Of a DNA stretch of 15,215 nucleotides, positions 880 through 13,955 are shown piece by piece. The notes beneath the pieces are model-generated. The model saw nothing but the letters and a program-made list of their open reading frames with translations. It had not been told where the DNA came from and made no database searches. The position numbers and the translations under genes are program-made. The stretch's first letter is position 1, and each line of letters begins with the position of its first letter. The stretch is from the IMG/VR virus record IMGVR_UViG_2627853678_000004; one strand, given 5' to 3'. This stretch comes from a virus. Lineage: Duplodnaviria; Heunggongvirae; Uroviricota; Caudoviricetes.

Positions 880-1704
880 CTATTTCTTCTCTGTAATTTT
901 TACACTGTTTTCCAACTGCTTGATGCTGACCTGCGGGGTCGGCAACTCCTCAGGCATGGTTCCGCCAAGTTCCTGAATGGTTTGCCTCACCTTGCTACCC
1001 ACGTCAAAGTGTGTGGTATTAGCTTGCTGTTTTGAATTCACGCCATCCCGCTTGAGTTTTTCTTCTGTTTGGGTAGCTCGAAAGAGATTAGCCGCCAGTT
1101 CTGTTGAACCCATATGATCCAGGATCTTCTGACTCTTTTTCAGCCCCTTCCGCTGATGGATGGCTTTCTGATCTAATCCACCATACAGCCCCCGGTAACC
1201 ATGATTCTGAAATATGGCGAAATCGATAGCTGTCGCTACCCCAGCTTGCTGCGCTGCCTCAACCAATTGTTTGTTATGTTCTTTCAATTCATTTCTCAGA
1301 AAAAGACGCTTTTCGTCTTCACGAAGTTGCCTGAAAGCTTCATCGTCAGCCAGCTCCTGCCGTCGGGTCTGGATAGCAAAATAAGTTTGCCCTGCCGCAA
1401 TAACCGGTTTCGCAGGGTCGCCGTTTTGTACTACCAGGTAACAGGCATAGCGGGAGAGATGAACATCTTCAAGTTCTCGTTGAGCCCCTGAACCTAATAC
1501 AACCATTTTGGTGGTTTCAACGAAATGGTCAGATGCAGCTTGATTGCTGGCTTCGCACGCTTGAGTCGCGCGGGCCAGTACCTTTTGAAAATTGCGCCAG
1601 TCCCGATAATCCAGTAACGGTGCCAATTCTCTAGCTGACCAAAATTCTTGCCCTTCAGTGCCATAATGCCGTATTTCTTCAAAAGGTTGATGATGTTCGT
1701 TCAT
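880..1704 (-). CDS. dinD: DNA damage-inducible protein D (DinD)
   Basis: The six-frame ORF 880..1716 has its first good start at the internal ATG 1702-1704 (MNEHHQPFEEIRHYG...), preceded by GGAG at 6 nt spacing. A perfect LexA box lies 44 bp upstream and yicG is the downstream neighbour, as in E. coli K-12. Identity is from recalled sequence. Confidence 0.8.
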   Translation of the reverse strand: MNEHHQPFEEIRHYGTEGQEFWSARELAPLLDYRDWRNFQKVLARATQACEASNQAASDHFVETTKMVVLGSGAQRELEDVHLSRYACYLVVQNGDPAKPVIAAGQTYFAIQTRRQELADDEAFRQLREDEKRLFLRNELKEHNKQLVEAAQQAGVATAIDFAIFQNHGYRGLYGGLDQKAIHQRKGLKKSQKILDHMGSTELAANLFRATQTEEKLKRDGVNSKQQANTTHFDVGSKVRQTIQELGGTMPEELPTPQVSIKQLENSVKITEKK

Positions 1705-1747
1705 TGCCCACTCCATGTGATATCGATTGCAAAGAAAGTAAATCTGT

Positions 1748-1767
1748 AACTGTATTTATATACAGTT
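1748..1767. promoter_or_regulatory. LexA (SOS) box upstream of dinD
   Basis: AACTGTATTTATATACAGTT is an exact CTGT-N8-ACAG palindrome. Its reverse complement AACTGTATATAAATACAGTT matches my recollection of the dinD operator. Confidence 0.75.
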
Positions 1768-1859
1768 GTGAGTATCTCACGTTCTCAGTGTGCTGGGCAA
1801 AAAAACATCGCAAAATCTGGAGCAGGCACGCAAAACAGAATTGAAGTTGCGGGGAAGAA

Positions 1860-1898
1860 AAATGCCGCTCTGTTTGAGTGGGCGGCATTTGTGAAGGC
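1860..1898 (-). terminator. putative intrinsic terminator between the DinD paralog and the dinD promoter
   Basis: A perfect 9 bp stem (AAATGCCGC at 1860-1868 pairing with GCGGCATTT at 1882-1890) encloses a 13 nt loop. On the minus-strand RNA it is followed by UUUUUCUU. Confidence 0.4.
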
Positions 1899-2054
1899 TG
1901 AAAAGTAAGAATTGGCGTTACGAGTTATTCAATGTTGAATCTGTTTATTGAGTAGGTTGATTAAAGCTGCGTGGTTGCTGGTTTTTTTATAATGCGTTTT
2001 TTCATTAGGTACACCCTTGTGTACACCGTAAAGTGATGTGCTTAAAGGCTGCGT

Positions 2055-2879
2055 CTATTTTTTATCCAGCTTCTTGGCGGCAGATTCTAATTGTTTGATG
2101 CTTTTTTCCGGTACGGGCAGATTCTCTGGCATTGTCCCGCCTAGCTCCTGGATTGTTTGCCTAACTTTCCGGCCGACCTCGAAGTGAGTTTCATTAGCTT
2201 TTTGCTTCGATTTAACATTATCTCTGCGGAGCTTTTCTTCTGCCTGAGTCGCTCGGAACAGGTTGGCTGCCAATTCGGTAGAACCCATGTGATCGAGTAT
2301 CTTTTGGCTCTTTTTAAGACCTTTTCGCTGATGGATAGCCTTTTGGTCTAACCCGCCATAAAGCCCCTTGTATCCGTGATTCTGGAAGATTGCAAAGTCC
2401 AATGTTGTTTCAACACCAGCTTGCTGTGCTGCCTCAACAAGTTGCTTGTTGTGTTCCTTTAACTCGTTTCGGAGAAAAAGGCGCTTTTGATCCTCGCGGA
2501 GTCGCTTGAATGTTTCATCGTCAGCTAGTTCTTGCCGTCTGGTCTGTATTGCAAAATATGTTTGCCCAGCAGCAATAACTGGCTTGCTAGGATCGCCGTT
2601 CTGCACAACTAGATAGCAGGCATATCTGGACAAATGAACATCTTCCAACTCTCGTTGGGCACCAGACCCTAGAACAACCATTTTGGTGGTATCAACGAAA
2701 TGGTCTGAAACCTCTTGGTTGCTGGTTTCACACGCCTGAGCTGCTCGTGATAGAACGTTTTGAAAGTTTCGCCAATCTCGATAATCCAGTAGTGGTGCCA
2801 AATCTCTTGCTGACCAATATTCCTGCCCTTCGCTTCCATATTGTCGTAAGTCTTCAAATGGTTGATGGTGCTCGTTCAT
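2055..2879 (-). CDS. DinD-like paralog (274 aa), probably element-borne
   Basis: Full-length ORF starting MNEHHQPFEDLRQYG..., roughly 85-90% amino-acid identity to the adjacent dinD by eye but clearly diverged at nucleotide level. Same GGAGTG-type Shine-Dalgarno. No CTGT-N8-ACAG box is visible in its upstream region 2880-3013. Confidence 0.75.
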   Translation of the reverse strand: MNEHHQPFEDLRQYGSEGQEYWSARDLAPLLDYRDWRNFQNVLSRAAQACETSNQEVSDHFVDTTKMVVLGSGAQRELEDVHLSRYACYLVVQNGDPSKPVIAAGQTYFAIQTRRQELADDETFKRLREDQKRLFLRNELKEHNKQLVEAAQQAGVETTLDFAIFQNHGYKGLYGGLDQKAIHQRKGLKKSQKILDHMGSTELAANLFRATQAEEKLRRDNVKSKQKANETHFEVGRKVRQTIQELGGTMPENLPVPEKSIKQLESAAKKLDKK

Positions 2880-3013
2880 TGCTCACTCCATGTATTGGCT
2901 TGATGTTCAAGTGTGGTGACTTTTACTGGCGCTACTGCTAGCGGAGAGACTCAATATCTCACATCCTGATTAATGTATGATAGAGGTATCCCACAATAAG
3001 GAACCAGCCAGCC

Positions 3014-3373
3014 ATGAGAATGACCAACCGCAAAAAAGAGATACTCAGCTACTTTGAGCCGGATAACCTCGAATGGGTGACAGGTGAGATTGGTGCGCCG
3101 CCGTTCGATGTATCGGGCGTGGCCTACCTGCTTCACGGCATGGTGTCGTTCGATAATCGCCACCAGCTCGAATCAACCCGGCGCACGCTGGAAAACATGG
3201 TTGCTGGTGGACTGCTTGAGCGGGTGACAGTGTATGAATCGCGCCAGATACGGCGCGGCGGTGAGACTAACGCAACGGTCGTGCGCTACGGTTTACCCGG
3301 TCAGTGCGCTGTTATGCGCGATACTGGCGGCGCTGATAACGCAATATCAGGTGAATACATGCGGGTCAGTTAA
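3014..3373 (+). CDS. hypothetical protein (119 aa)
   Basis: The only convincing plus-strand ORF in the window; non-repetitive protein-like composition (MRMTNRKKEILSYFEPDNLEWVTGEIGAPPFDVSG...). An AGGAA lies upstream, and 3020 is an alternative ATG. I do not recognise the family. Confidence 0.45.
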   Translation: MRMTNRKKEILSYFEPDNLEWVTGEIGAPPFDVSGVAYLLHGMVSFDNRHQLESTRRTLENMVAGGLLERVTVYESRQIRRGGETNATVVRYGLPGQCAVMRDTGGADNAISGEYMRVS

Positions 3374-3908
3374 TAGCCTGCAATCTGTCGTTGATGCGGC
3401 TCAGGTCGTAAACCCGGCGTTCAATATCCAGCATCAGGAAATTGTGGATCTCGGCCTGCTCAGGATTATCAGACTCTCTGGCCTGTAATAGCAATTCATT
3501 GTAACCATGCAAGCCGCCTGAGTTTTCCGCCGGGGTGGTGCCTTTCCCACGCAGGCAGCTAATGGGCTGATTGCTCGTATCGTGTGTTTGCTTCTCCAGC
3601 ACAATGACGCAATCCCACCAGTCGCCAAAGTCATACGTGTAAACCAGCTTGTCACCATCATTCTGGAGCGCTGCCCATAGTGGTGTGATTGCCGCATTAC
3701 CCATGCTTTCATCCTCACCCCATACGCGATACTCGCTACCGGGATCACCTTTACGCCCTTTCTCGAACATATACAGGTGTTCGTCATTCCAGCCAAAAGC
3801 CAACTGGATCACCGCGTGAAGTTCACTAAAGGGGATTTGCTCTGGAACCAGCACACGCCGCCATATAGGTGGTTTGCTGTCTCGGATGGTTATCTTTAGC
3901 TGGTACAT
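3366..3908 (-). CDS. pRiA4b ORF-3-like family protein
   Basis: Start placed at the internal ATG 3906-3908 (MYQLKITIRDSKPPIWRRVLVPEQIPFSELHAVIQLAFGWNDEHLYMF...), with AGGA 7 nt upstream. The YQLK...PPIWRR...GW.D.HL pattern is the recalled signature of the pRiA4b ORF-3-like domain. The six-frame ORF extends to 3956 without support. Confidence 0.6.
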   Translation of the reverse strand: MYQLKITIRDSKPPIWRRVLVPEQIPFSELHAVIQLAFGWNDEHLYMFEKGRKGDPGSEYRVWGEDESMGNAAITPLWAALQNDGDKLVYTYDFGDWWDCVIVLEKQTHDTSNQPISCLRGKGTTPAENSGGLHGYNELLLQARESDNPEQAEIHNFLMLDIERRVYDLSRINDRLQAIN

Positions 3909-3991
3909 GCAAATCCTGAATAAATGCGAATCGGAAGGATAACGATACTGACGCACTCACAATTCTGTAAAGGTGAATAAAGGTAATTTGC

Positions 3992-4213
3992 TTAATAAGC
4001 ATAAGTTACATGCGGAATAATCCCGTATCTACTGCGTGGCGCTGGCTTCTTCCACTGGTAGGCAGGCGCTCGCATCATCTCCCCGAACCGTTTGCGCCGG
4101 GCTGTATCAGCTTCAATAATGCGCTCCATTTCCCGAACCTCTGCCGGGGTAAGCTGGTGGCCTTCATGCTCCAGTTTAGCGGCTGTGATTGCGGCTATCT
4201 GCTGTGGTGTCAT
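3992..4213 (-). CDS. small hypothetical protein (73 aa)
   Basis: Internal ATG at 4211-4213 with AGGGG 8 nt upstream; product MTPQQIAAITAAKLEHEGHQLTPAEVREMERIIEADTARRKRF.... The longer ORF to 4369 adds only a low-complexity basic extension and runs across a strong hairpin. Confidence 0.35.
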   Translation of the reverse strand: MTPQQIAAITAAKLEHEGHQLTPAEVREMERIIEADTARRKRFGEMMRAPAYQWKKPAPRSRYGIIPHVTYAY

Positions 4214-4294
4214 GGTTGCCCCTGTTGCGTAGTTTTGGGCGATCAATATACTGTCCAAAACATAATTGCGCCGGGTATTAGTCTGTCCGCTCTC

Positions 4295-4321
4295 AAACGC
4301 CCTTTTGGGCGTTTTGCTTTT
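4295..4321 (+). terminator. terminator-like hairpin
   Basis: AAACGCCC-TTTT-GGGCGTTT is a perfect 8 bp stem with a 4 nt loop, followed on the plus strand by TGCTTTT. It lies in the leader of the 73-aa gene; functional strand is uncertain. Confidence 0.35.
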
Positions 4322-4482
4322 ACAGCTTCGGGCCAATATCTTTGGCAGCTTTCCCCGTCTTACGCTCAATCACGCCCGTGATATAGCTGCGCGTTCTGTT
4401 TCTCACTGGCTGGCCTCCTGCGAATTACTGCGCATTAACTGCGATCTGCGCAAAAAATGAATGAGAGATAATAAGCGTTTTT

Positions 4483-4568
4483 CTGCGTACTGCGCACCAG
4501 TGGCGCGAACCAGAATATTTTGGACTGCCTAAATCGAATATGGCTTCCAGCCCGCTACTGGCGCGGTT
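4483..4568. repeat. copy 1 of an ~86 bp conserved intergenic repeat
   Basis: CTGCGTACTGCGCACCAGTGGCGCGAACCAG...GGCTTCCAGCCCGCTACTGGCGCGGTTC aligns to 5268-5354 at roughly 85% identity, and the final 26 bp are identical. Confidence 0.8.
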
Positions 4569-4638
4569 CTCTCTTCATATGGGCTTTGAGTCTGTCCAGT
4601 ACAGTCCAGTATTTCAACATTGGTGACTATACGGATTG

Positions 4639-5420: not shown

Positions 5421-5732
5421 TTACTGCGAACCATCGCCCCCGCTGGTGGTATGCCGTTGCCTCTTGCCGCCATTTAACCGGAAGGCGTTACCGTTCGGTT
5501 GCGCTATCCCCATGCGGTGCTGAGTTTCGGTGACAGCTTTATGCAGGTCGCCAAAGTCCTCAACCTTCACGGGCGGGCGCTTCACGTTCTCCAGACACGT
5601 TTCACGGCGGCGCTTTATCCATTCCCGATCATCGTCCTCGGTGCATAACAGCATGACTTCCATCCATCGCGCGGCGGCGCGTCGGTACAGCCCTTTTGCT
5701 TCCAGATCCTCAGCTTTGCTGTCGTTTACCAT
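5421..5732 (-). CDS. PerC-family transcriptional regulator
   Basis: ATG at 5730-5732 preceded by GAGGGGGG; product MVNDSKAEDLEAKGLYRRAAARWMEVMLLCTEDDDREWIKRRRETCL..., matching the recalled PerC-family N-terminal pattern. It sits 11 nt downstream of the ssb stop. Confidence 0.65.
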   Translation of the reverse strand: MVNDSKAEDLEAKGLYRRAAARWMEVMLLCTEDDDREWIKRRRETCLENVKRPPVKVEDFGDLHKAVTETQHRMGIAQPNGNAFRLNGGKRQRHTTSGGDGSQ

Positions 5733-5743
5733 GTTCACCCCCC

Positions 5744-6205: not shown

Positions 6206-6307
6206 TTTGCGAATACCTCGAATTATTAGTTTTGCTAATGAAGATTGCCCGGCACCGTCTTATTGTGGGACACCTTCGCCAGATTTTTTTGTATATAACA
6301 AAAATAG

Positions 6308-6592: not shown

Positions 6593-9352
6593 TTATTCTT
6601 CTGGCTGGCTGCTTTCCTCATCCATGAAGTTGAGCACATAAACGCGAATTTGCCGCCCTCCTTCCCTTACCCGCCCCTGATAACCTCGCCCGCTCGTTGG
6701 TGGTGTTAGCATTCCTGCATTCTTGAGAACTTCGGCAAACTGCCTGACATTAAAACCCCGTGCGATCTCCTGCTCAAATGTTGCCGGGAAGGTGTAGAAA
6801 ATTATCGGGTCGCCGTCGTGGTTCCCCTTCTTCCTGTACCCGGCTAAATCACGGATGGGTAAATCGCGCGGGTCATAACCCAGCGGCGCGAATCTACTCA
6901 GCCCATAGGCATTTAAAAACGCCTCCGTCTGCTCGATGATCTGCTGGTGCTCTTTGTTCCCCGTGCCGAACTCTTTCAGCCATGCGTTATAGGTGTGCTG
7001 TATCGCATCCCGGCACGTTTGAGCATCCCAGCCAGTAACCACGCCACCCAGCAGTAAAGCGGCCTCCAGAATGGCGAACCTCGCCCCTACACGGTGAACC
7101 TGTTCCCCATAGTCAGCAGGGATTAGACTTCGCCATCGGGCTTCACACTCACGAACGGCATCAATCGCCTGCTGCTGGTGGTCTGAAAGCCATCTAATCC
7201 ACTCCCGCCCGGCAGCGCCATGATGGTGCTGGTAAGCGTCTTTCAGCGCGTCGGCGTGATCTTTCCCTGTCTGGTGCTCATGAAAGCGCACCGCCTTACT
7301 CAGCGGGATATTCAGCAGTCGCACCAGTTGCCCCGCTTTTGTCTTGCGTCCTGCGGTGGCGATGAACGTTTCTAAATCCATTTCCCCGGTGCTGATTGCC
7401 ACGGTGCGCCAGCGTTTCAGATCCCGGTTGCCTCCTTCCTTTGCTCCCTGCAATTTCCCCACGCCGTTAAACAGGGCATAGGCAGACTGAGAAACGCTTA
7501 TCGGGTCTGCGCCCTGTCCGACTTCATCCAGCGGCATCAGCCCGTCATTGTGGGCGGCGGCCTCGTTTATCAGCCCCAGCGCCGTCCCATACCACGTCAG
7601 GCGCAAGGCATCAGGGTTGCCGTAAAGACTGCTCGCCACGTTCTGCGTGGTTGTTTTCCCGGCGCTCGATTGCTCATAAAAATGAATCCCGAATCCGTCA
7701 CGATCTGCCACCCCGATTAATGGCGCTGCCAGTGCTGCGGCGATGCCTGTCATCATCGCGTAGTTGCCGTATGCCAGCCGCGCAACACTGTTAAGCCAGC
7801 TTTCAGGCGTTCCTGCTACGGTATACCCGGCAGCGGCTGAACTGCGCCCGCTGAACAAAACAGGCCGCTGAGGTGTGCCGATGATTTCCCCGTCCGGCAT
7901 GATGTATGCCCCACACTGCCAGCCTGTAGCATGAGCAACGCGCCACAATTCACGCGAGCCGCTTCGCTGTAACCAGTCGGCAAGAATCGCCCGTAGGCTG
8001 TTTTTCGTTGTGACGTTGACGCCACCAGCTTTCAGGGTGCGCCAGCCTTCACGCTCGCCAATATCAGCCAGCGGGATAGCCGCTGTTGTCCGTATGCCTG
8101 CACCGAATGCCAGCCATGAGATAATAAGATACTGATCTTTGTCGTCGCGTCCCGTGCCGATAACCTCCAACGGTGAACATAACCAGCTTTCAGCGTTGAT
8201 GATCTCCCCGCTTTCCTTGTCCACCTTCGGCGTTACCCAGAAAACGCCATCTTTTCGGCTCTCAATGTGGGGTTTTAGTGGGTCTTTCTCTGGATGGTCA
8301 GTTTTACCGCCCTCAATGGCCTGCAATCGTGGTTTAACGGCTTCCCCTTGAATCTGGTACATCGAGTCGTTAAACGCAGCCGTAGCGACTTCCAGCCCGT
8401 TTTGCTGGTGGTGGTCGTTCCAGTCGGCTTTGTAGTCTGTCGGCGGCAGTGCCACCCATCCAGCCACGGACAAGGCGGCTTTCTCTGCGGCCTCCCTGCC
8501 TGTATTGGCTTCTCCGTTTTGGTGGTGGTCGTTGTCTGCGGCGATGATTATTTGTGCCTGTGGATACTTCCGGCGCATCACTTCGGCAACGGGTAGCAGG
8601 TTGCCCGCGTCAATTGCTGCCACTGCCAGCGCGTCCGGGCGCATCAGGTGAACTGAAAGGGCCGTCGCCAGCCCCTCGGCAATTAAAACGCTCTGCGGCG
8701 ATTCTGGCGCGTTTACGGCGTGATATGCCCCGCGCTTTGCCGAACCCGTCAGAAGTCGCTTTTCTCCATGCGGTGTAATGGTCTGCGCTGCTGCCACTGC
8801 GCCGGATTCATCCACCAGCTCCAGCAATAACGAACCATCTGGCATTAGCGGGTAATTAAACCCGGTCAGCCCTTTTGATTGCAGGTACTCAGCTTCGCCC
8901 TGTATGGCTCTCTGGCGCATTCCGGCATACAGACGGGAAAACGTAGCCCGGCGCTGCTCTGCGTCCTCTGCGGCCTTTTTCTGTCGCTCCTGCTCATGCC
9001 GCTGGCGGTCTGCGGCTAACTGCGTCTGTCTCTGGCTGGCAGCGTCTGGTGCTGGTTCTGCGGCCCGGTAATCAATACCCAGCACATCAGCGGCAAGGTG
9101 CGCCGCCTCCGTGGTGTCGCAGTTGTTAACCCGTTTGATTAAATCCAGCCCATCGCCCGCGCCGCACTGATTGCAGATAAAGCTACCTCGCCCGTTGTCG
9201 TCGAATCTGAAACGGTCTTTCCCACCACATGCAGGGCAGGGGGCATGACGGCGCGATGAATCAGGAACGTCGATAGACAGGCCAGCCAGCACATAAGGCC
9301 ATTTACCAGCGGCGGCGCTGGTCACTTCGCGGATAATGTCGATATTACGCAT
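6593..9352 (-). CDS. primase-helicase (zinc-ribbon, TOPRIM and P-loop domains), P4 alpha-like replication protein
   Basis: 919 aa. N-terminal CPACGG...FICNQCG zinc ribbon; TOPRIM-like segment (AEGLATA...IIAADNDHH...GEANTGREAAEKAA); C-terminal P-loop region (SSAGKTT Walker A-like, MPLDEVGQ Walker B-like). GGGAGG Shine-Dalgarno before the ATG at 9350-9352. Confidence 0.85.
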   Translation of the reverse strand: MRNIDIIREVTSAAAGKWPYVLAGLSIDVPDSSRRHAPCPACGGKDRFRFDDNGRGSFICNQCGAGDGLDLIKRVNNCDTTEAAHLAADVLGIDYRAAEPAPDAASQRQTQLAADRQRHEQERQKKAAEDAEQRRATFSRLYAGMRQRAIQGEAEYLQSKGLTGFNYPLMPDGSLLLELVDESGAVAAAQTITPHGEKRLLTGSAKRGAYHAVNAPESPQSVLIAEGLATALSVHLMRPDALAVAAIDAGNLLPVAEVMRRKYPQAQIIIAADNDHHQNGEANTGREAAEKAALSVAGWVALPPTDYKADWNDHHQQNGLEVATAAFNDSMYQIQGEAVKPRLQAIEGGKTDHPEKDPLKPHIESRKDGVFWVTPKVDKESGEIINAESWLCSPLEVIGTGRDDKDQYLIISWLAFGAGIRTTAAIPLADIGEREGWRTLKAGGVNVTTKNSLRAILADWLQRSGSRELWRVAHATGWQCGAYIMPDGEIIGTPQRPVLFSGRSSAAAGYTVAGTPESWLNSVARLAYGNYAMMTGIAAALAAPLIGVADRDGFGIHFYEQSSAGKTTTQNVASSLYGNPDALRLTWYGTALGLINEAAAHNDGLMPLDEVGQGADPISVSQSAYALFNGVGKLQGAKEGGNRDLKRWRTVAISTGEMDLETFIATAGRKTKAGQLVRLLNIPLSKAVRFHEHQTGKDHADALKDAYQHHHGAAGREWIRWLSDHQQQAIDAVRECEARWRSLIPADYGEQVHRVGARFAILEAALLLGGVVTGWDAQTCRDAIQHTYNAWLKEFGTGNKEHQQIIEQTEAFLNAYGLSRFAPLGYDPRDLPIRDLAGYRKKGNHDGDPIIFYTFPATFEQEIARGFNVRQFAEVLKNAGMLTPPTSGRGYQGRVREGGRQIRVYVLNFMDEESSQPEE

Positions 9353-9366
9353 TCGTATTACCTCCC

Positions 9367-9489
9367 TCAGTGCGCCGCTGGCATTTCAGGCAAGCCGTTT
9401 TCATTCAGATCAGCAATGAATCCATCATGCAGCTCTGCCAGCGTTTCACGTCCGAACGGGGTCAGCTCGCCGCGCTCCGTGTCGATCAT
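9367..9489 (-). CDS. unannotated 40-aa ORF, translationally coupled to the primase-helicase
   Basis: Not in the supplied ORF track. Its ATG (9487-9489) overlaps the stop of the 168-aa ORF as ATGA, and its TGA (9367-9369) lies just before the primase Shine-Dalgarno. Product MIDTERGELTPFGRETLAELHDGFIADLNENGLPEMPAAH. Confidence 0.35.
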   Translation of the reverse strand: MIDTERGELTPFGRETLAELHDGFIADLNENGLPEMPAAH

Positions 9490-9992
9490 GGCCTGATAAA
9501 AACAATGGCGTTCGCCGTTCCCTGCTCAATGCCGTAGCGCTCAATCATTGCGCCCTCGATGTTATTCGCCATCGCCAGACGTTCCGCGAACGGGTAAACC
9601 ACAATCCCCGCCGTGCCATTGGAGTAAATCGCTACTTTTGACGTTGTGCCGTCAGCCTCCGTGACGGTGGTTGTGCCGTTTTCGCGCTTCATCTCAGAAA
9701 TGAACGTGGTAGCAATCAGCCAGCGCCACATAGTGACGTTATGCTGCGCGGTAAAGTCGAACCAGCCACGCGCCCCGCCATCAGCAACGGCAAAATGTAT
9801 GGCGTATCCGATATTTGGCGTATCGTCGTACTCTCCGGCATCAAGGCGGTTTACCGCGCTCTCGTAGCTGATAAGAGCAACCTGCTCATATCCCCCGGCA
9901 TCATTGCGGGTCATGATATTGACGCCGTGCGGTGTGGCTTCGGCGTGTAATAAGTCGGCATTTCCCGATTTAATGGTCGGTGCGTTGCTCAT
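9486..9992 (-). CDS. hypothetical protein (168 aa)
   Basis: ORF in an ATGA-overlap chain with its neighbours; non-repetitive composition. Family not recognised. Confidence 0.55.
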   Translation of the reverse strand: MSNAPTIKSGNADLLHAEATPHGVNIMTRNDAGGYEQVALISYESAVNRLDAGEYDDTPNIGYAIHFAVADGGARGWFDFTAQHNVTMWRWLIATTFISEMKRENGTTTVTEADGTTSKVAIYSNGTAGIVVYPFAERLAMANNIEGAMIERYGIEQGTANAIVFIRP

Positions 9993-10252
9993 GCGCTGCC
10001 CTCCGCATCAATTCTGGCTATATCGACAATCGTCAGGACTTTACTCAGCCAGCAATACGCGATGGCTGCTTGCTCAACTTCGAGGAGTGGTAATAAATCG
10101 GTCATAACGTGAGCCAGCCCATTGCGGGCGCGGGTCATGCGTTCTGCTGTTCGGTCTGCCAGCGTAAAATCATCCGGGTATGATTCTTTGCGAGATAGCA
10201 TCGCTTCGGCTTCCAGCTCTGCCGGGTGGCGGTAGATGGTATTTATGTTCAT
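9989..10252 (-). CDS. hypothetical protein (87 aa)
   Basis: Its ATG (10250-10252) overlaps the upstream stop as ATGA, and its stop overlaps the next start as ATGA. Confidence 0.5.
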   Translation of the reverse strand: MNINTIYRHPAELEAEAMLSRKESYPDDFTLADRTAERMTRARNGLAHVMTDLLPLLEVEQAAIAYCWLSKVLTIVDIARIDAEGSA

Positions 10253-10428
10253 GCTGCCACCTCACGAATGCGGGTAATCTGGATGTGGGAAAGGCGTTCA
10301 TTTCTGGCCTGATTTAGCGCCTCAGCTTTGGCGCTGATCGCGCTGCGGGCGTCAACGATATAAACGAACTCGACTAATTCGCCGCTCCGGGCGGTGGCGC
10401 ATCCTGCAACACGGAAGTAATTAAGCAT
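10249..10428 (-). CDS. hypothetical small protein (59 aa)
   Basis: ATG at 10426-10428 with AGGGGG 6 nt upstream (MLNYFRVAGCATARSGELVEFVYIVDARS...). It overlaps the upstream stop by 8 nt. The six-frame ORF start at 10458 lacks a Shine-Dalgarno. Confidence 0.45.
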   Translation of the reverse strand: MLNYFRVAGCATARSGELVEFVYIVDARSAISAKAEALNQARNERLSHIQITRIREVAA

Positions 10429-10612
10429 GTGCGCCCCCTGTGCGAATACGTCCGGCAAAAAAGCAAACGTGATCCCGCGCCAGAATGCGGCGGGCTTCCT
10501 GCTCAGTTTCTGCGGCGATATGGTGAATTTTGGCGGTAATTGTCGGCATGTCGCGGCGAACGGCTGCGATTAACCAGATAAATTGTGGATTTTGGGTAGG
10601 GGTAGTAGCCAT
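10421..10612 (-). CDS. small protein (63 aa), possibly Icd-like
   Basis: ATG at 10610-10612 with GAGG upstream (MATTPTQNPQFIWLIAAVRRDMPTITAKIHHIAAETEQEARRILARDHVCFFAGRIRTGGAHA). Resemblance to Icd-like small proteins of P4-type islands is from memory only. Confidence 0.4.
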   Translation of the reverse strand: MATTPTQNPQFIWLIAAVRRDMPTITAKIHHIAAETEQEARRILARDHVCFFAGRIRTGGAHA

Positions 10613-10781
10613 GATGGCAGCCTCTATACAGTGAATTTTGAATTCACCACCAAGAGACGCCAATCTCAGACTGGTGGTGAGCTGAACAAGGTTGGCGTAA
10701 CCGGCCTGTATAGACACCGGCCTTCCTTTCGGAAGCCTCATCCAGCCCACCATAATTTGGGTGCGCAGGAATTTTGCCGAC

Positions 10782-10804
10782 AAAAAAACACGCTTAGTGC
10801 GTGT
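10782..10804 (-). terminator. putative intrinsic terminator or attenuator in the leader
   Basis: On the minus-strand RNA, ACACGC-loop-GCGUGU (6 bp stem, 5 nt loop) is followed by UUUUUUU. It lies inside the long non-coding-looking region upstream of the small-ORF/primase operon. Confidence 0.35.
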
Positions 10805-11132
10805 CGGCACTATACAGGTTATCGGGACGCCAATCCCGGCACCTGATTTTGCAGGTGCGCTATAACCATAAACCGGGTTGGCGATAGTCGGCAAGCCCTT
10901 TTTTATGGACTCGCAAAACTCACCTTCGCGCGTGCGCGTACTGGTCGCAAAACTCGAAAAAAACTTAGGATTTATTAGGATTCGCAGCCCAATTCTCAGC
11001 CCAGAAAACGCCTCTAAAATGTCGTCATTTGTCGCAACGGCGCGGCGATGAATGTCAGGTTTTGACAGGTTGTAAGGGTTAACATTTGTTAACAGGCTAG
11101 CCAGATTAAAGGCTTCTTTCTGGGCGGCAGGT

Positions 11133-11315
11133 TCATTCAGTATCACGGCGCACCTCCACGAACTCCTTAACGAATCTCTCCAAAGGCTGAACACATGGCG
11201 ACTGATAGCCCTCGCGGTAAAAGGTCACTCGGTTATGCTCGACGCGCTGTACGGTCACTACAGCCCCGTGCGAATCCTTGTAACGGCTTCCCGGCATCGG
11301 ATTATGGTTACGCAT
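11133..11315 (-). CDS. hypothetical small protein (60 aa)
   Basis: ATG at 11313-11315 with GGAGG upstream (MRNHNPMPGSRYKDSHGAVVTVQRVEHNRVTFYREGY...). Overlaps the antirepressor stop by 8 nt. Confidence 0.5.
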   Translation of the reverse strand: MRNHNPMPGSRYKDSHGAVVTVQRVEHNRVTFYREGYQSPCVQPLERFVKEFVEVRRDTE

Positions 11316-12140
11316 GGTTTACCTCCAGACGTTTAGCGAGCCAGCGTTGCGACAGGCGGGTGAGTTCTCCTTTGGGCTGCTCATATTCCATGCCCATATC
11401 AATTAACGTGATATTGGTGCTTTCGAGATATGAGAGGTGCTCAAGCTGTTCTGCGTTCATATGGTCGCGAGGTTCGCCAGAATAGCCATTTATCCGCGCC
11501 CACTGCTTAGCAGTTAGCCCACCAAGAACGATACGAGAAATCATATTGCTCTCGTTTGTGTAGTGGTGTTGCTGCGTCGTTTTACCCATCTCGGCACGGG
11601 CCATATTCAGCGCATCGCACATCGGCTTAAAGTTGTTTGCGGCACTGATACGGGCTTTTAGCTGGCGACGATAGCGGGCGGCGATTTCAGGCACGCTACG
11701 CTGTAATTCTTCCTCGCACTGGATGAAATAACGGCGGATAGCGCGGCCCTGTTCGGTGCGTTCGATCATTGCCAGTTCTTTCGCCATTCCGACACTTAAC
11801 AGATAGTCTTTGCCGGGTCTGCCAGAGTGCTTAATCTTGCTGTAAGCCGCGCCATTCGGGCTTTTCCCCAAATTTGGGGAAATAGTTTTATGGACTGAGT
11901 AATCGTGCCCAATGGTGAAGTCATATTCAGAGATGCGATCAGTGATCCATGTAGAGAAGTCTTTTCCCACGCCCAACGCTTTGTGTAACGCTTTTGCGCT
12001 AACAATATTGGTTTCACGCCCACCGATATGACCAGGAATAACCGGGACAATTGCGGCAAATTCATTACCGTTAATTGTGCCTGATAGGCGTTCAGATGAG
12101 GGGCGGCCTCAGAAATTAATCTGCTTTTTTCGATGTTCAT
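11308..12140 (-). CDS. phage antirepressor (AntA/KilAC-type); 5' end is in a different frame from the conserved body, possible pseudogene
   Basis: Conserved body in one frame (open 11308-12108): ...IVPVIPGHIGGRETNIVSAKALHKALGVGKDFSTWITDRISEYDF...DYLLSVGMAKELAMIERTEQGRAIRRYFIQCEE.... That frame has no ATG, GTG or TTG start with a Shine-Dalgarno before the TTG at 11976. The only good start (GGAG plus ATG at 12138-12140) is in another frame that stops at 11796. Confidence 0.55.
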
Positions 12141-13840: not shown

Positions 13841-13955
13841 CGCGTCACCTTTCACGCTGTGCCTTAAAGAGTGATTGAGCCAGGCGGTAAGGCTTCCCGC
13901 TTTTCGCCCCGTCGGGCTAGGCTCAATCTGTCCTCTGATTCTTTACATATCTTGG

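Follow-up and report, generated by a model that had tools for sequence, protein, structure and literature searches.

The window analysed here is the whole 15,215-nucleotide (nt) stretch of virus DNA (Caudoviricetes) held as IMG/VR record IMGVR_UViG_2627853678_000004. It carries a series of small open reading frames (ORFs) directly ahead of a primase-helicase gene. We consider it likely that this region is the early (replication) operon of a phage satellite, and that a switch of the kind known from phages P4 and P1 gates both its first gene, an icd homologue, and, by translational coupling, the primase. The cassette of isrK- and C4-type RNAs upstream of icd was overlooked in the initial annotation and is the key to the operon. 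Four protein genes (icd-like, orf59, orf87 and orf208) precede the primase. The initial annotation had counted five by treating the two pieces of a frameshifted orf208, of 168 and 40 amino acids (aa), as separate genes.

The RNA cassette upstream of icd

All positions given below are those of the window, and all features of the operon lie on the minus strand. From its upstream end, the RNA cassette comprises the following.

10865-10894, minus strand: putative promoter, a conserved stretch that resembles a promoter (TTGCCG, 17 nt, TTATGG/TATGGT) and closely precedes the start of the isrK-like RNA
10819-10871, minus strand: c4-a1b1 (Rfam RF03163, 48.4 bits)
10783-10858, minus strand: leader RNA like isrK and P4 seqA (Rfam RF01394, 75.8 bits, E 4.8e-15)
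10827-10833, minus strand: a1 site, inside the isrK-like leader
10810-10817, minus strand: b1 site, inside the isrK-like leader
10787-10805, minus strand: intrinsic terminator hairpin of the leader, followed by a U-run
10670-10757, minus strand: C4-type antisense RNA of the P1 c4 / P4 CI class (Rfam RF01695, 72.4 bits, E 8.3e-13, full length)
10706-10714, minus strand: b', the loop of C4 hairpin 2, complementary to b1 and b2
10692-10698, minus strand: a', the single-stranded stretch after C4 hairpin 2, complementary to a1 and a2
10657-10663, minus strand: a2 target site, between C4 and icd
10623-10631, minus strand: b2 target site, overlapping the Shine-Dalgarno (SD) sequence AGAGG of icd (10621-10625)

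The isrK, c4-a1b1 and C4 matches all exceed their own gathering scores in the window (45 for RF01695), and both isrK and C4 do so in 17 of the 18 related loci scanned. The same profiles detect relatives of CI and seqA in Gram-negative phage-inducible chromosomal islands (PICIs; PMC10111431). In structure, IsrK is homologous to P4 SeqA, and seqA and seqC are both pairing partners of CI (PMC4825925).

Covariation provides the evidence that these pairings are maintained, and it links the C4 loops to both sets of targets, a1/b1 as well as a2/b2. The window and its related loci hold 10 distinct combinations of a' and b', which we call specificity types, and b2 lies over the icd SD in every one of them. 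Cognate b'-b2 pairings run to 8-10 contiguous base pairs (bp), against a mean of 4.3 for non-cognate pairings, and cognate a'-a2 pairing always has 7 bp. An alignment of 17 sequences, which includes a P1-like phage, has compensatory double changes in 7 of the 9 b'-b2 pairs and 6 of the 7 a'-a2 pairs; the three internal helices of C4 are 100% paired, also with compensatory changes. At the cognate sites 91-100% of the alignment cells are paired, compared with about 40% when the partners are slid, and none of 500 shuffles reached the observed score.

The specificity types, at least 10 in number, are combinations of about 5 a-types and 9-10 b-types. One a-type, ACGCCAA, is common to the window and three other loci (L003, L010 and L015), and some types share a while differing in b. 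This distribution suggests that b determines heteroimmunity. A megablast search of the isrK-C4 leader against phages returned no near-identical cassette. On this result, the idea that a known helper phage shares the exact immunity specificity is unsupported. The exact matches in IMG/VR are only related satellites.

The first gene of the operon

The 63-aa ORF, the first of the chain to be translated, encodes an Icd-like protein that is homologous to both P1 Icd and P4 Kil. It matches the NCBIfam family phage_ICD_like (NF033153) at E 1.4e-20, which overturns, for this ORF, the initial statement that none of the small proteins has a recognisable motif. Pairwise comparison gives 36% identity to Icd of a P1-like Punavirus (E 8e-9). 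Identity is 41% to the last 65 residues of the P4 "cI ORF" of older annotations, a region that matches phage_ICD_like itself (E 7.8e-21) and that we take to be P4 Kil. A tblastn search of the phage collection with the 63-aa protein gave no match, and the homology to the P1-type protein is drawn from the pairwise comparison. The ratio of nonsynonymous to synonymous substitution rates (dN/dS) of the gene is 0.05-0.30. Icd-like genes are present in most Enterobacter satellites (PMC13612085).

RefSeq/PGAP annotate a much longer first gene at 10421-11146 (minus strand), a 241-aa "host cell division inhibitor Icd-like protein" that would start about 530 nt further upstream and leave no non-coding leader. 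There is indeed an open frame of 257 codons, and it is an annotated coding sequence (CDS) in RefSeq genomes, but we give this reading next to no credence: the extension spans all three Rfam matches (isrK, c4-a1b1 and C4) with their RNA-type compensatory covariation, only the last 63 residues are Icd-like, the annotated length varies erratically among close relatives (696, 726, 831, 873 and 897 nt), the Icd of the P1-like phage starts at the homologous MAT(I/T)PT motif, and P4 shared the same historical mis-annotation ("cI gene product AA 1-137"). Because of the RNA matches inside it and its erratic length, the long ORF is best read as a spurious 5' extension over non-coding RNA genes.

A chain of overlapping genes that runs into the primase

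Downstream of the RNA cassette, the ORF listing and direct reading of the letters give the following features.

10421-10612, minus strand: 63-aa ORF (icd-like)
10249-10428, minus strand: 59-aa ORF (orf59), annotated as a 180-nt CDS in relatives
9989-10252, minus strand: 87-aa ORF (orf87)
9486-9992, minus strand: 168-aa ORF, first part of the split orf208
9367-9489, minus strand: 40-aa ORF, tail part of the split orf208
9367-9992, minus strand: orf208 (phrog_1515 family), split in the window, with five T (T5) at 9498-9502 where relatives have six (T6)
6593-9352, minus strand: primase-helicase of 919 aa, with Zn-ribbon, Toprim and DUF927 domains (Pfam)

The ORF listing bears out the initial description of small ORFs that run in series, with start/stop overlaps, into the primase-helicase. 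The icd-like gene overlaps orf59 by 8 nt, and the next three junctions, beginning with orf59/orf87, are ATGA; a 14-nt gap then precedes the primase. The SD of the primase, GGGAGG (9361-9366), lies within this gap directly 3' of the orf208 stop, so that the last ORF does end, as first described, just ahead of the primase ribosome-binding site (RBS). On inspection, every start of the chain has a purine-rich SD, that of the 40-aa ORF excepted. Overlaps of 4 or 8 nt recur at 66 junctions in 19 related loci (50 and 16, respectively), and dN/dS of the chain ORFs is 0.05-0.46. Because the overlaps are kept in relatives and the ORFs have low dN/dS, the chain exceeds what chance would produce.

The layout in relatives is constant in outline: isrK, C4, a gap of 54-57 nt, icd (62-67 aa), small ORFs, the 208-aa gene, a gap of 8-16 nt and the primase, which is Toprim-DUF927 in some and of the P4 family in others. 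Some relatives have an optional 113-aa ORF, with an 8-nt overlap, between the 208-aa gene and the primase. Between icd and the 208-aa gene the small ORFs form a mosaic of cassettes (59, 63, 64, 65, 66, 73, 87, 92 and 102 aa) in which the overlaps are kept. Two IMG/VR contigs with an identical C4 loop (L027, positions 937-3574, and L028) have a minimal operon of icd, an 8-nt overlap, a 73-aa ORF, ATGA and the primase, and are without orf59, orf87 and orf208. Judging by this minimal form, the core of the operon consists of icd and the primase, and coupling can apparently run right into the primase. A locus of Enterobacter adelaidei (L016) has two tandem paralogues of the 208-aa family (3462-3974 and 4001-4576), the second only 24% identical; neither isrK nor C4 exceeds its gathering score there.

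The 40-aa ORF as the tail of a broken gene

Genome comparison shows that the 40-aa ORF is no independent gene but what is left of the C-terminus of a 208-aa gene after a frameshift. The region is 99.9% identical to chromosomal islands of many Escherichia coli genomes. Across 1.4 kb, the sole difference between the window and E. coli strain D5 is one extra T in the T-run of the latter; T6 fuses the 168- and 40-aa frames into a single CDS of 627 nt and 208 aa, which reads ...I-V-F-Y-Q-A-M-I-D-T..., so that the "start" of the 40-aa ORF is the internal Met169. The ATGA at the junction of the two frames is an accident, in that a deletion of 1 base from the T6 run puts TGA across Met169.

T5 occurs in none of the 65 complete E. 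coli genomes found with a 76-nt probe over the site, and the 627-nt gene is annotated in all of the more diverged islands (85-96% DNA identity). Fourteen loci from other genera, among them Kluyvera, Enterobacter, Lonsdalea, Shimwellia, Kosakonia, Klebsiella and Xenorhabdus, have proteins of 34-89% identity, encoded in a single ORF of 181-208 aa in all but one. That single exception among the diverged loci is a metagenome-assembled genome (MAG) of 4.9x coverage, in which the gene is broken at a different place.

The protein family gives the same picture. The intact form matches phrog_1515 at E 1.5e-48 (residues 31-208 on profile positions 23-203 of 203), and the window copy is interrupted at codon 166. 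The protein has 559 homologues, and 118 of the 120 best listed are 208 aa long. A search of 1.84 billion representatives (50% clustering) returned 119 relatives, of which the full-length ones (about 190-215 aa, with identity down to 23%) align through or near residue 208. When 44 diverse members are aligned, three residues prove near-invariant: Y166, which the frameshift destroys, G181 and H208 at the terminus. AlphaFold predicts one compact domain for the 208-aa form, with a predicted local distance difference test score (pLDDT) of 92.4 and a predicted template modelling score (pTM) of 0.87; helices 155-169 and 179-199, which are packed in the same fold, belong to the part that the frameshift cuts off.

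The initial annotation took the 40-aa ORF for a genuine micro-gene, the fifth of the series, whose translation is coupled to that of the 168-aa gene; this claim must be weighed against these data. The ORF does exist, with its ATGA junction, gene callers give a separate 40-aa gene in two other assemblies with the T5 allele, and its codons are under purifying selection (dN/dS 0.14-0.46 over the last 40 codons). However, the selection acts in the frame of the 208-aa protein, which is uninterrupted in 65 of 65 complete E. coli genomes, in the diverged loci (the low-coverage MAG excepted) and in the protein family at large. No SD was found upstream of the 40-aa ORF, which is preceded by ...tttttatcaggccATG, and the fold model needs its residues. 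No standalone copy with start signals of its own was found in relatives: wherever the gene is intact, the frame forms part of an ORF of 181-208 aa. The frame is thus conserved, as the initial annotation had proposed to check, but only inside the 208-aa gene. Given the T6 fusion, the lengths of the homologues, the conserved residues, the fold and the absent SD, the 168- and 40-aa ORFs are one gene, and a separate micro-gene is extremely improbable. The coordinates, sizes and overlaps of the five serial ORFs (63, 59, 87, 168 and 40 aa) hold as first described, while the gene count falls to four. A programmed frameshift at the T-run as an evolved feature was also considered and rejected, as the other complete E. 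coli genomes with this stretch all have T6 and the diverged relatives are uninterrupted.

Is the T5 allele real?

When 15.2 kb of the window are compared with D5 (99.95% identical), the differences are four 1-nt deletions, a single deletion of 2 bp and two substitutions. The 1-nt deletions all fall in homopolymers, and two of them, in the AntA/AntB gene and in orf208, split genes that are intact in relatives. This excess over the two substitutions is what an error in the sequencing or assembly of the window source would produce, and the real element would then have an intact 208-aa gene. We hold this to be a credible minority possibility. Against it, two assemblies of independent public read sets (Logan) encode exactly the same 168-aa product; one of these T5 assemblies is 100% identical to the window over 2.8 kb, and the other has an intact AntA. 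Because it was assembled from two independent read sets, T5 probably exists as a genuine but rare frameshift allele and does not stem from sequencing error alone. Whether or not T5 is real, the 40-aa ORF is not an evolved micro-gene.

If T5 is real it might even be functional, either by reinitiation at AUGA, with the 168- and 40-aa products reassembling, or by a -1 slip of tRNA-Phe on GUU UUU A that restores I-V-F-Y-Q-A-M. The stop falls exactly on Met169, the wild-type protein would, as read from the letters, be restored unchanged by a -1 slip on the U-run, and the allele comes from three independent sources (the window and the two Logan assemblies), one of them with an otherwise intact AntA. 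However, the allele is rare (0 of 65 complete genomes), the break removes the near-invariant Y166 and cuts helix 155-169, five U without a stimulatory element make a poor slippery site, and the other gene-breaking homopolymer deletions of the window fit decay or sequencing error. We find a functional T5 allele improbable.

The AntA/AntB antirepressor gene (11308-12140, minus strand) is split into ORFs of 114 and 222 aa by a 1-nt deletion at 12081 (GGG to GG); E. coli D5 and the Logan contig L025 have it intact, as a CDS of 277 aa. The two further homopolymer deletions of the window are at 6298 and 4032. T-run length also differs between the window and L025 at about 10962 and about 10787, both non-coding; one of these T-runs is the U-tract of the isrK terminator.

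The proteins encoded between icd and the primase

Neither orf59 nor orf87 matched anything in Pfam, NCBIfam or PHROG scans. The first is a narrow enterobacterial family of 13 homologue clusters. The second has 342 homologues, always of 87 aa, with dN/dS of 0.14-0.36; its AlphaFold2 model has three helices only (pLDDT 83), and Foldseek found no match to it in the PDB at E <= 0.001. For orf208 no family was found beyond phrog_1515, and the predicted fold has no relative among solved or viral predicted structures. Its homologues in temperate phages (L06 of phiP27, Stx phages and Klebsiella phages) belong to the early-left operon, with the repressor region on one side of them and xis-int on the other. 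BLASTP of orf59, orf87 and orf208, and likewise of the optional cassettes of 65, 66, 73, 92, 104 and 113 aa, gave no significant similarity to P4 epsilon, ORF151 or ORF106.

The databases attach the names "HAD family hydrolase", "nicotinic acetylcholine receptor subunit beta" and "ubiquitin family protein" to orf59, orf87 and orf208. These names are probably spurious and propagated; no family search made here supports them. The cassette of 102-104 aa is named "ubiquinol-cytochrome C reductase" in RefSeq/nr, apparently another spurious name, and an NCBIfam scan of it gave no match.

From their context, we would guess that orf59, orf87 and orf208 are accessory factors that interact with the host or the helper. 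For orf208, a conserved accessory protein that manipulates host or helper is the most likely reading. More specifically, because of its confident fold without relatives, its place ahead of the replication gene under C4 control and its presence in phage early-left operons, it could tentatively be seen as a new kind of effector that acts on helper or host, such as a protein that does the work of P4 epsilon, or an anti-defence factor, though we think this rather doubtful. If it were one, the T5 allele, found in three data sets, would be a natural knock-out, and the gene would be dispensable for maintenance of the island.

The element and its integration site

In E. coli D5 the element forms an island, about 12.5 kb long, that is flanked by yicC and dinD. 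Its gene order is int, a 307-aa protein, AlpA, a 144-aa protein, AntA/AntB, DUF4222, the RNA cassette, icd, orf59, orf87, orf208, primase, the SSB gene, PerC and cargo that includes a PRiA4_ORF3 protein. Gram-negative PICIs are unidirectional islands of about 10-18 kb that carry int, alpA and pri at a specific site, and the D5 island has each of these properties. As in EcCICFT073 and EcCIMP1, int, alpA, antirepressor (the "Bro zone"), primase, SSB and PerC genes are arranged unidirectionally, and the set of AlpA, antirepressor, primase and PerC matches that of EcCIMP1 (PMC11773190). Unlike in those islands, no capsid or packaging module was recognised in the window element. The element thus appears to be a small integrative phage satellite that belongs to the Gram-negative PICI type and has a left arm like that of P4. 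Neither the RefSeq annotation of the complete island nor Pfam scans of the window ORFs show sid, delta or psu, and BLASTP found no epsilon homologue. For this reason we do not file it as a strict P4-like satellite.

Several features lie outside the operon. An int-alpA RNA motif (RF02996, 64.9 bits) at 13861-13927 (minus strand) falls between the integrase gene and a 312-aa ORF, and is also present in three related loci. Downstream of SSB is a PerC-family regulator gene (5421-5738, minus strand); a PerC homologue in the PICI EcCIMP1 reportedly represses LEE1 expression (PMC11773190). A protein of the PRiA4_ORF3 family (PF07929, E 3e-42) is encoded with a convergent, overlapping 119-aa ORF at 3014-3956 (both strands), and the pair may be cargo or a defence-type module. 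At the right end of the island are two tandem dinD-like genes with a Bro-N domain (880-1716 and 2055-2879, both minus strand). Of the two, one probably belongs to the chromosome and the other to the element, an arrangement that suggests integration at or next to dinD with a replacement copy.

Relationship to P4, P1 and Gifsy-1

The initial annotation saw an analogy between the position of the small ORFs and the gene cluster upstream of alpha in P4. For the RNA, Kil/Icd, Vis/AlpA and the primase domain, the likeness amounts to homology. Both elements have a CI/C4-class RNA flanked by complementary sites upstream and downstream (seqA and seqC in P4), then a Kil homologue, ahead of an alpha-type primase in one leftward operon. 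Upstream lies a Vis/AlpA-type gene, the AlpA being 37% identical to Vis, and the N-terminal 330 aa of the window primase are 36% identical to alpha. The P4 operon runs kil, 8-nt overlap, epsilon, 8-nt overlap, orf151, orf106, 14-nt gap, alpha, with 8-nt overlaps and a gap as in the window. A kil homologue is present in the window, but by BLASTP there are no homologues of epsilon, ORF151 or ORF106, and the middle ORFs of the window (59, 87 and 208 aa) are unrelated to them. In further contrast to P4, the helicase part of the window primase is DUF927, though some relatives carry a P4-family primase, AntA/AntB antirepressor and DUF4222 genes lie upstream, and sid, delta and psu were not detected.

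The likeness to the immI region of P1 and P7 is closest in the RNA. The window has a C4 match with the C4 fold, a' and b' loops, an upstream a1/b1 pair, a2 and b2 sites with b2 at the RBS of icd, and an icd homologue as the first gene, the arrangement that characterises C4 immunity of the P1 immI type. The P1-like phage also has a 54-nt gap between C4 and icd, and ATGA joins its icd to the next gene. In P1 and P7, however, the gene downstream of icd encodes the Ant antirepressor, whereas accessory ORFs and the primase follow in the window; no ant gene is coupled downstream of icd there, and AntA/AntB lies upstream of the RNA cassette. The IsrK locus of Gifsy-1 in Salmonella resembles the window in its isrK-type leader, which has a terminator, and in the stable processed RNA and the small ORFs that come next; its downstream genes are orf45 and the antirepressor gene anrP, in contrast to the icd-like and primase genes of the window (PMC4825925).

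A possible switch for the replication operon

The anatomy, homologies and covariation described above are observations on the window and its relatives; the regulatory steps that follow are proposals modelled on P1 and P4. While the element is at rest, C4 would be processed from the leader, pair with a2 and b2 and occlude the SD of icd. With icd untranslated, the stop-start-coupled ORFs would stay silent, since each start overlaps the preceding stop (by ATGA or 8 nt), and the naked message would be prematurely terminated, probably in a Rho-dependent manner. Icd, the accessory proteins and the primase would thereby be kept off in the resting island. Induction by a helper phage would bring strong AlpA-dependent transcription that titrates C4, for which a1/b1 may act as a decoy. 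The icd gene would then be translated and ribosomes handed down the chain to the SD of the primase. Like P1 Icd and P4 Kil, the Icd-like protein probably stops the cell from dividing, and orf59 and orf87 would be swappable accessory cassettes.

The cassette might instead work in the manner of Gifsy-1 IsrK or of P4, with the short leader RNA acting in trans to activate translation from the long transcript, or C4 chiefly enforcing termination at the terminator of the leader, and with the coupling incidental gene packing. The strong isrK match with its intrinsic terminator is in keeping with this, as is the minimum-free-energy fold, in which a1/b1 pair with the C4 loops in cis; Salmonella IsrK is an activator, and P4 CI acts via termination (PMC4825925). 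The position of b2 over the icd SD in every specificity type, as in P1, points to ribosome occlusion, and we judge the IsrK or P4 mode to be rather unlikely as the explanation, although activation or termination and a translational block are not mutually exclusive.

Several points weigh against an RNA gate on icd and the primase in the form given above. Rho dependence and the direction of regulation, which are reportedly features of P1 and P4, are carried over from those phages to the window by analogy. A consensus promoter scan called no promoter upstream of isrK. The primase, which has a strong SD of its own and lies 14 nt beyond orf208, need not depend on coupling. The searches of families and structures assigned no function to orf59, orf87 or orf208. 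With T5 in two other read sets, the element may carry a truly broken orf208 and could be decaying; its AntA/AntB gene is likewise frameshifted. Finally, the short IsrK RNA of Gifsy-1 activates rather than represses downstream translation (PMC4825925), and the sign of the contribution of the isrK leader is uncertain for that reason. On balance, a P4/P1-style switch that gates icd and, through it, the primase remains the reading that we consider likely.

Implications for satellites

The design described here was already known, and these findings leave the current understanding of satellites unchanged. They bear on how such elements are annotated. An apparent ATGA-coupled micro-ORF can arise from the deletion of 1 base in a homopolymer, and near-identical genomes settle the matter fast. 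The 230-300-aa "Icd-like protein" of RefSeq, laid over the isrK/C4 cassette and the 63-aa gene, repeats the error of the P4 "cI protein". Three conserved proteins that lack an assigned function, orf59, orf87 and orf208, are flagged by the analysis. From the perspective of the satellites themselves, the comparative set, with at least 10 specificity types and three-way covariation, indicates that the RNA switch of P1 and P4 is under selection in PICI-like satellites, where it would gate the replication operon.

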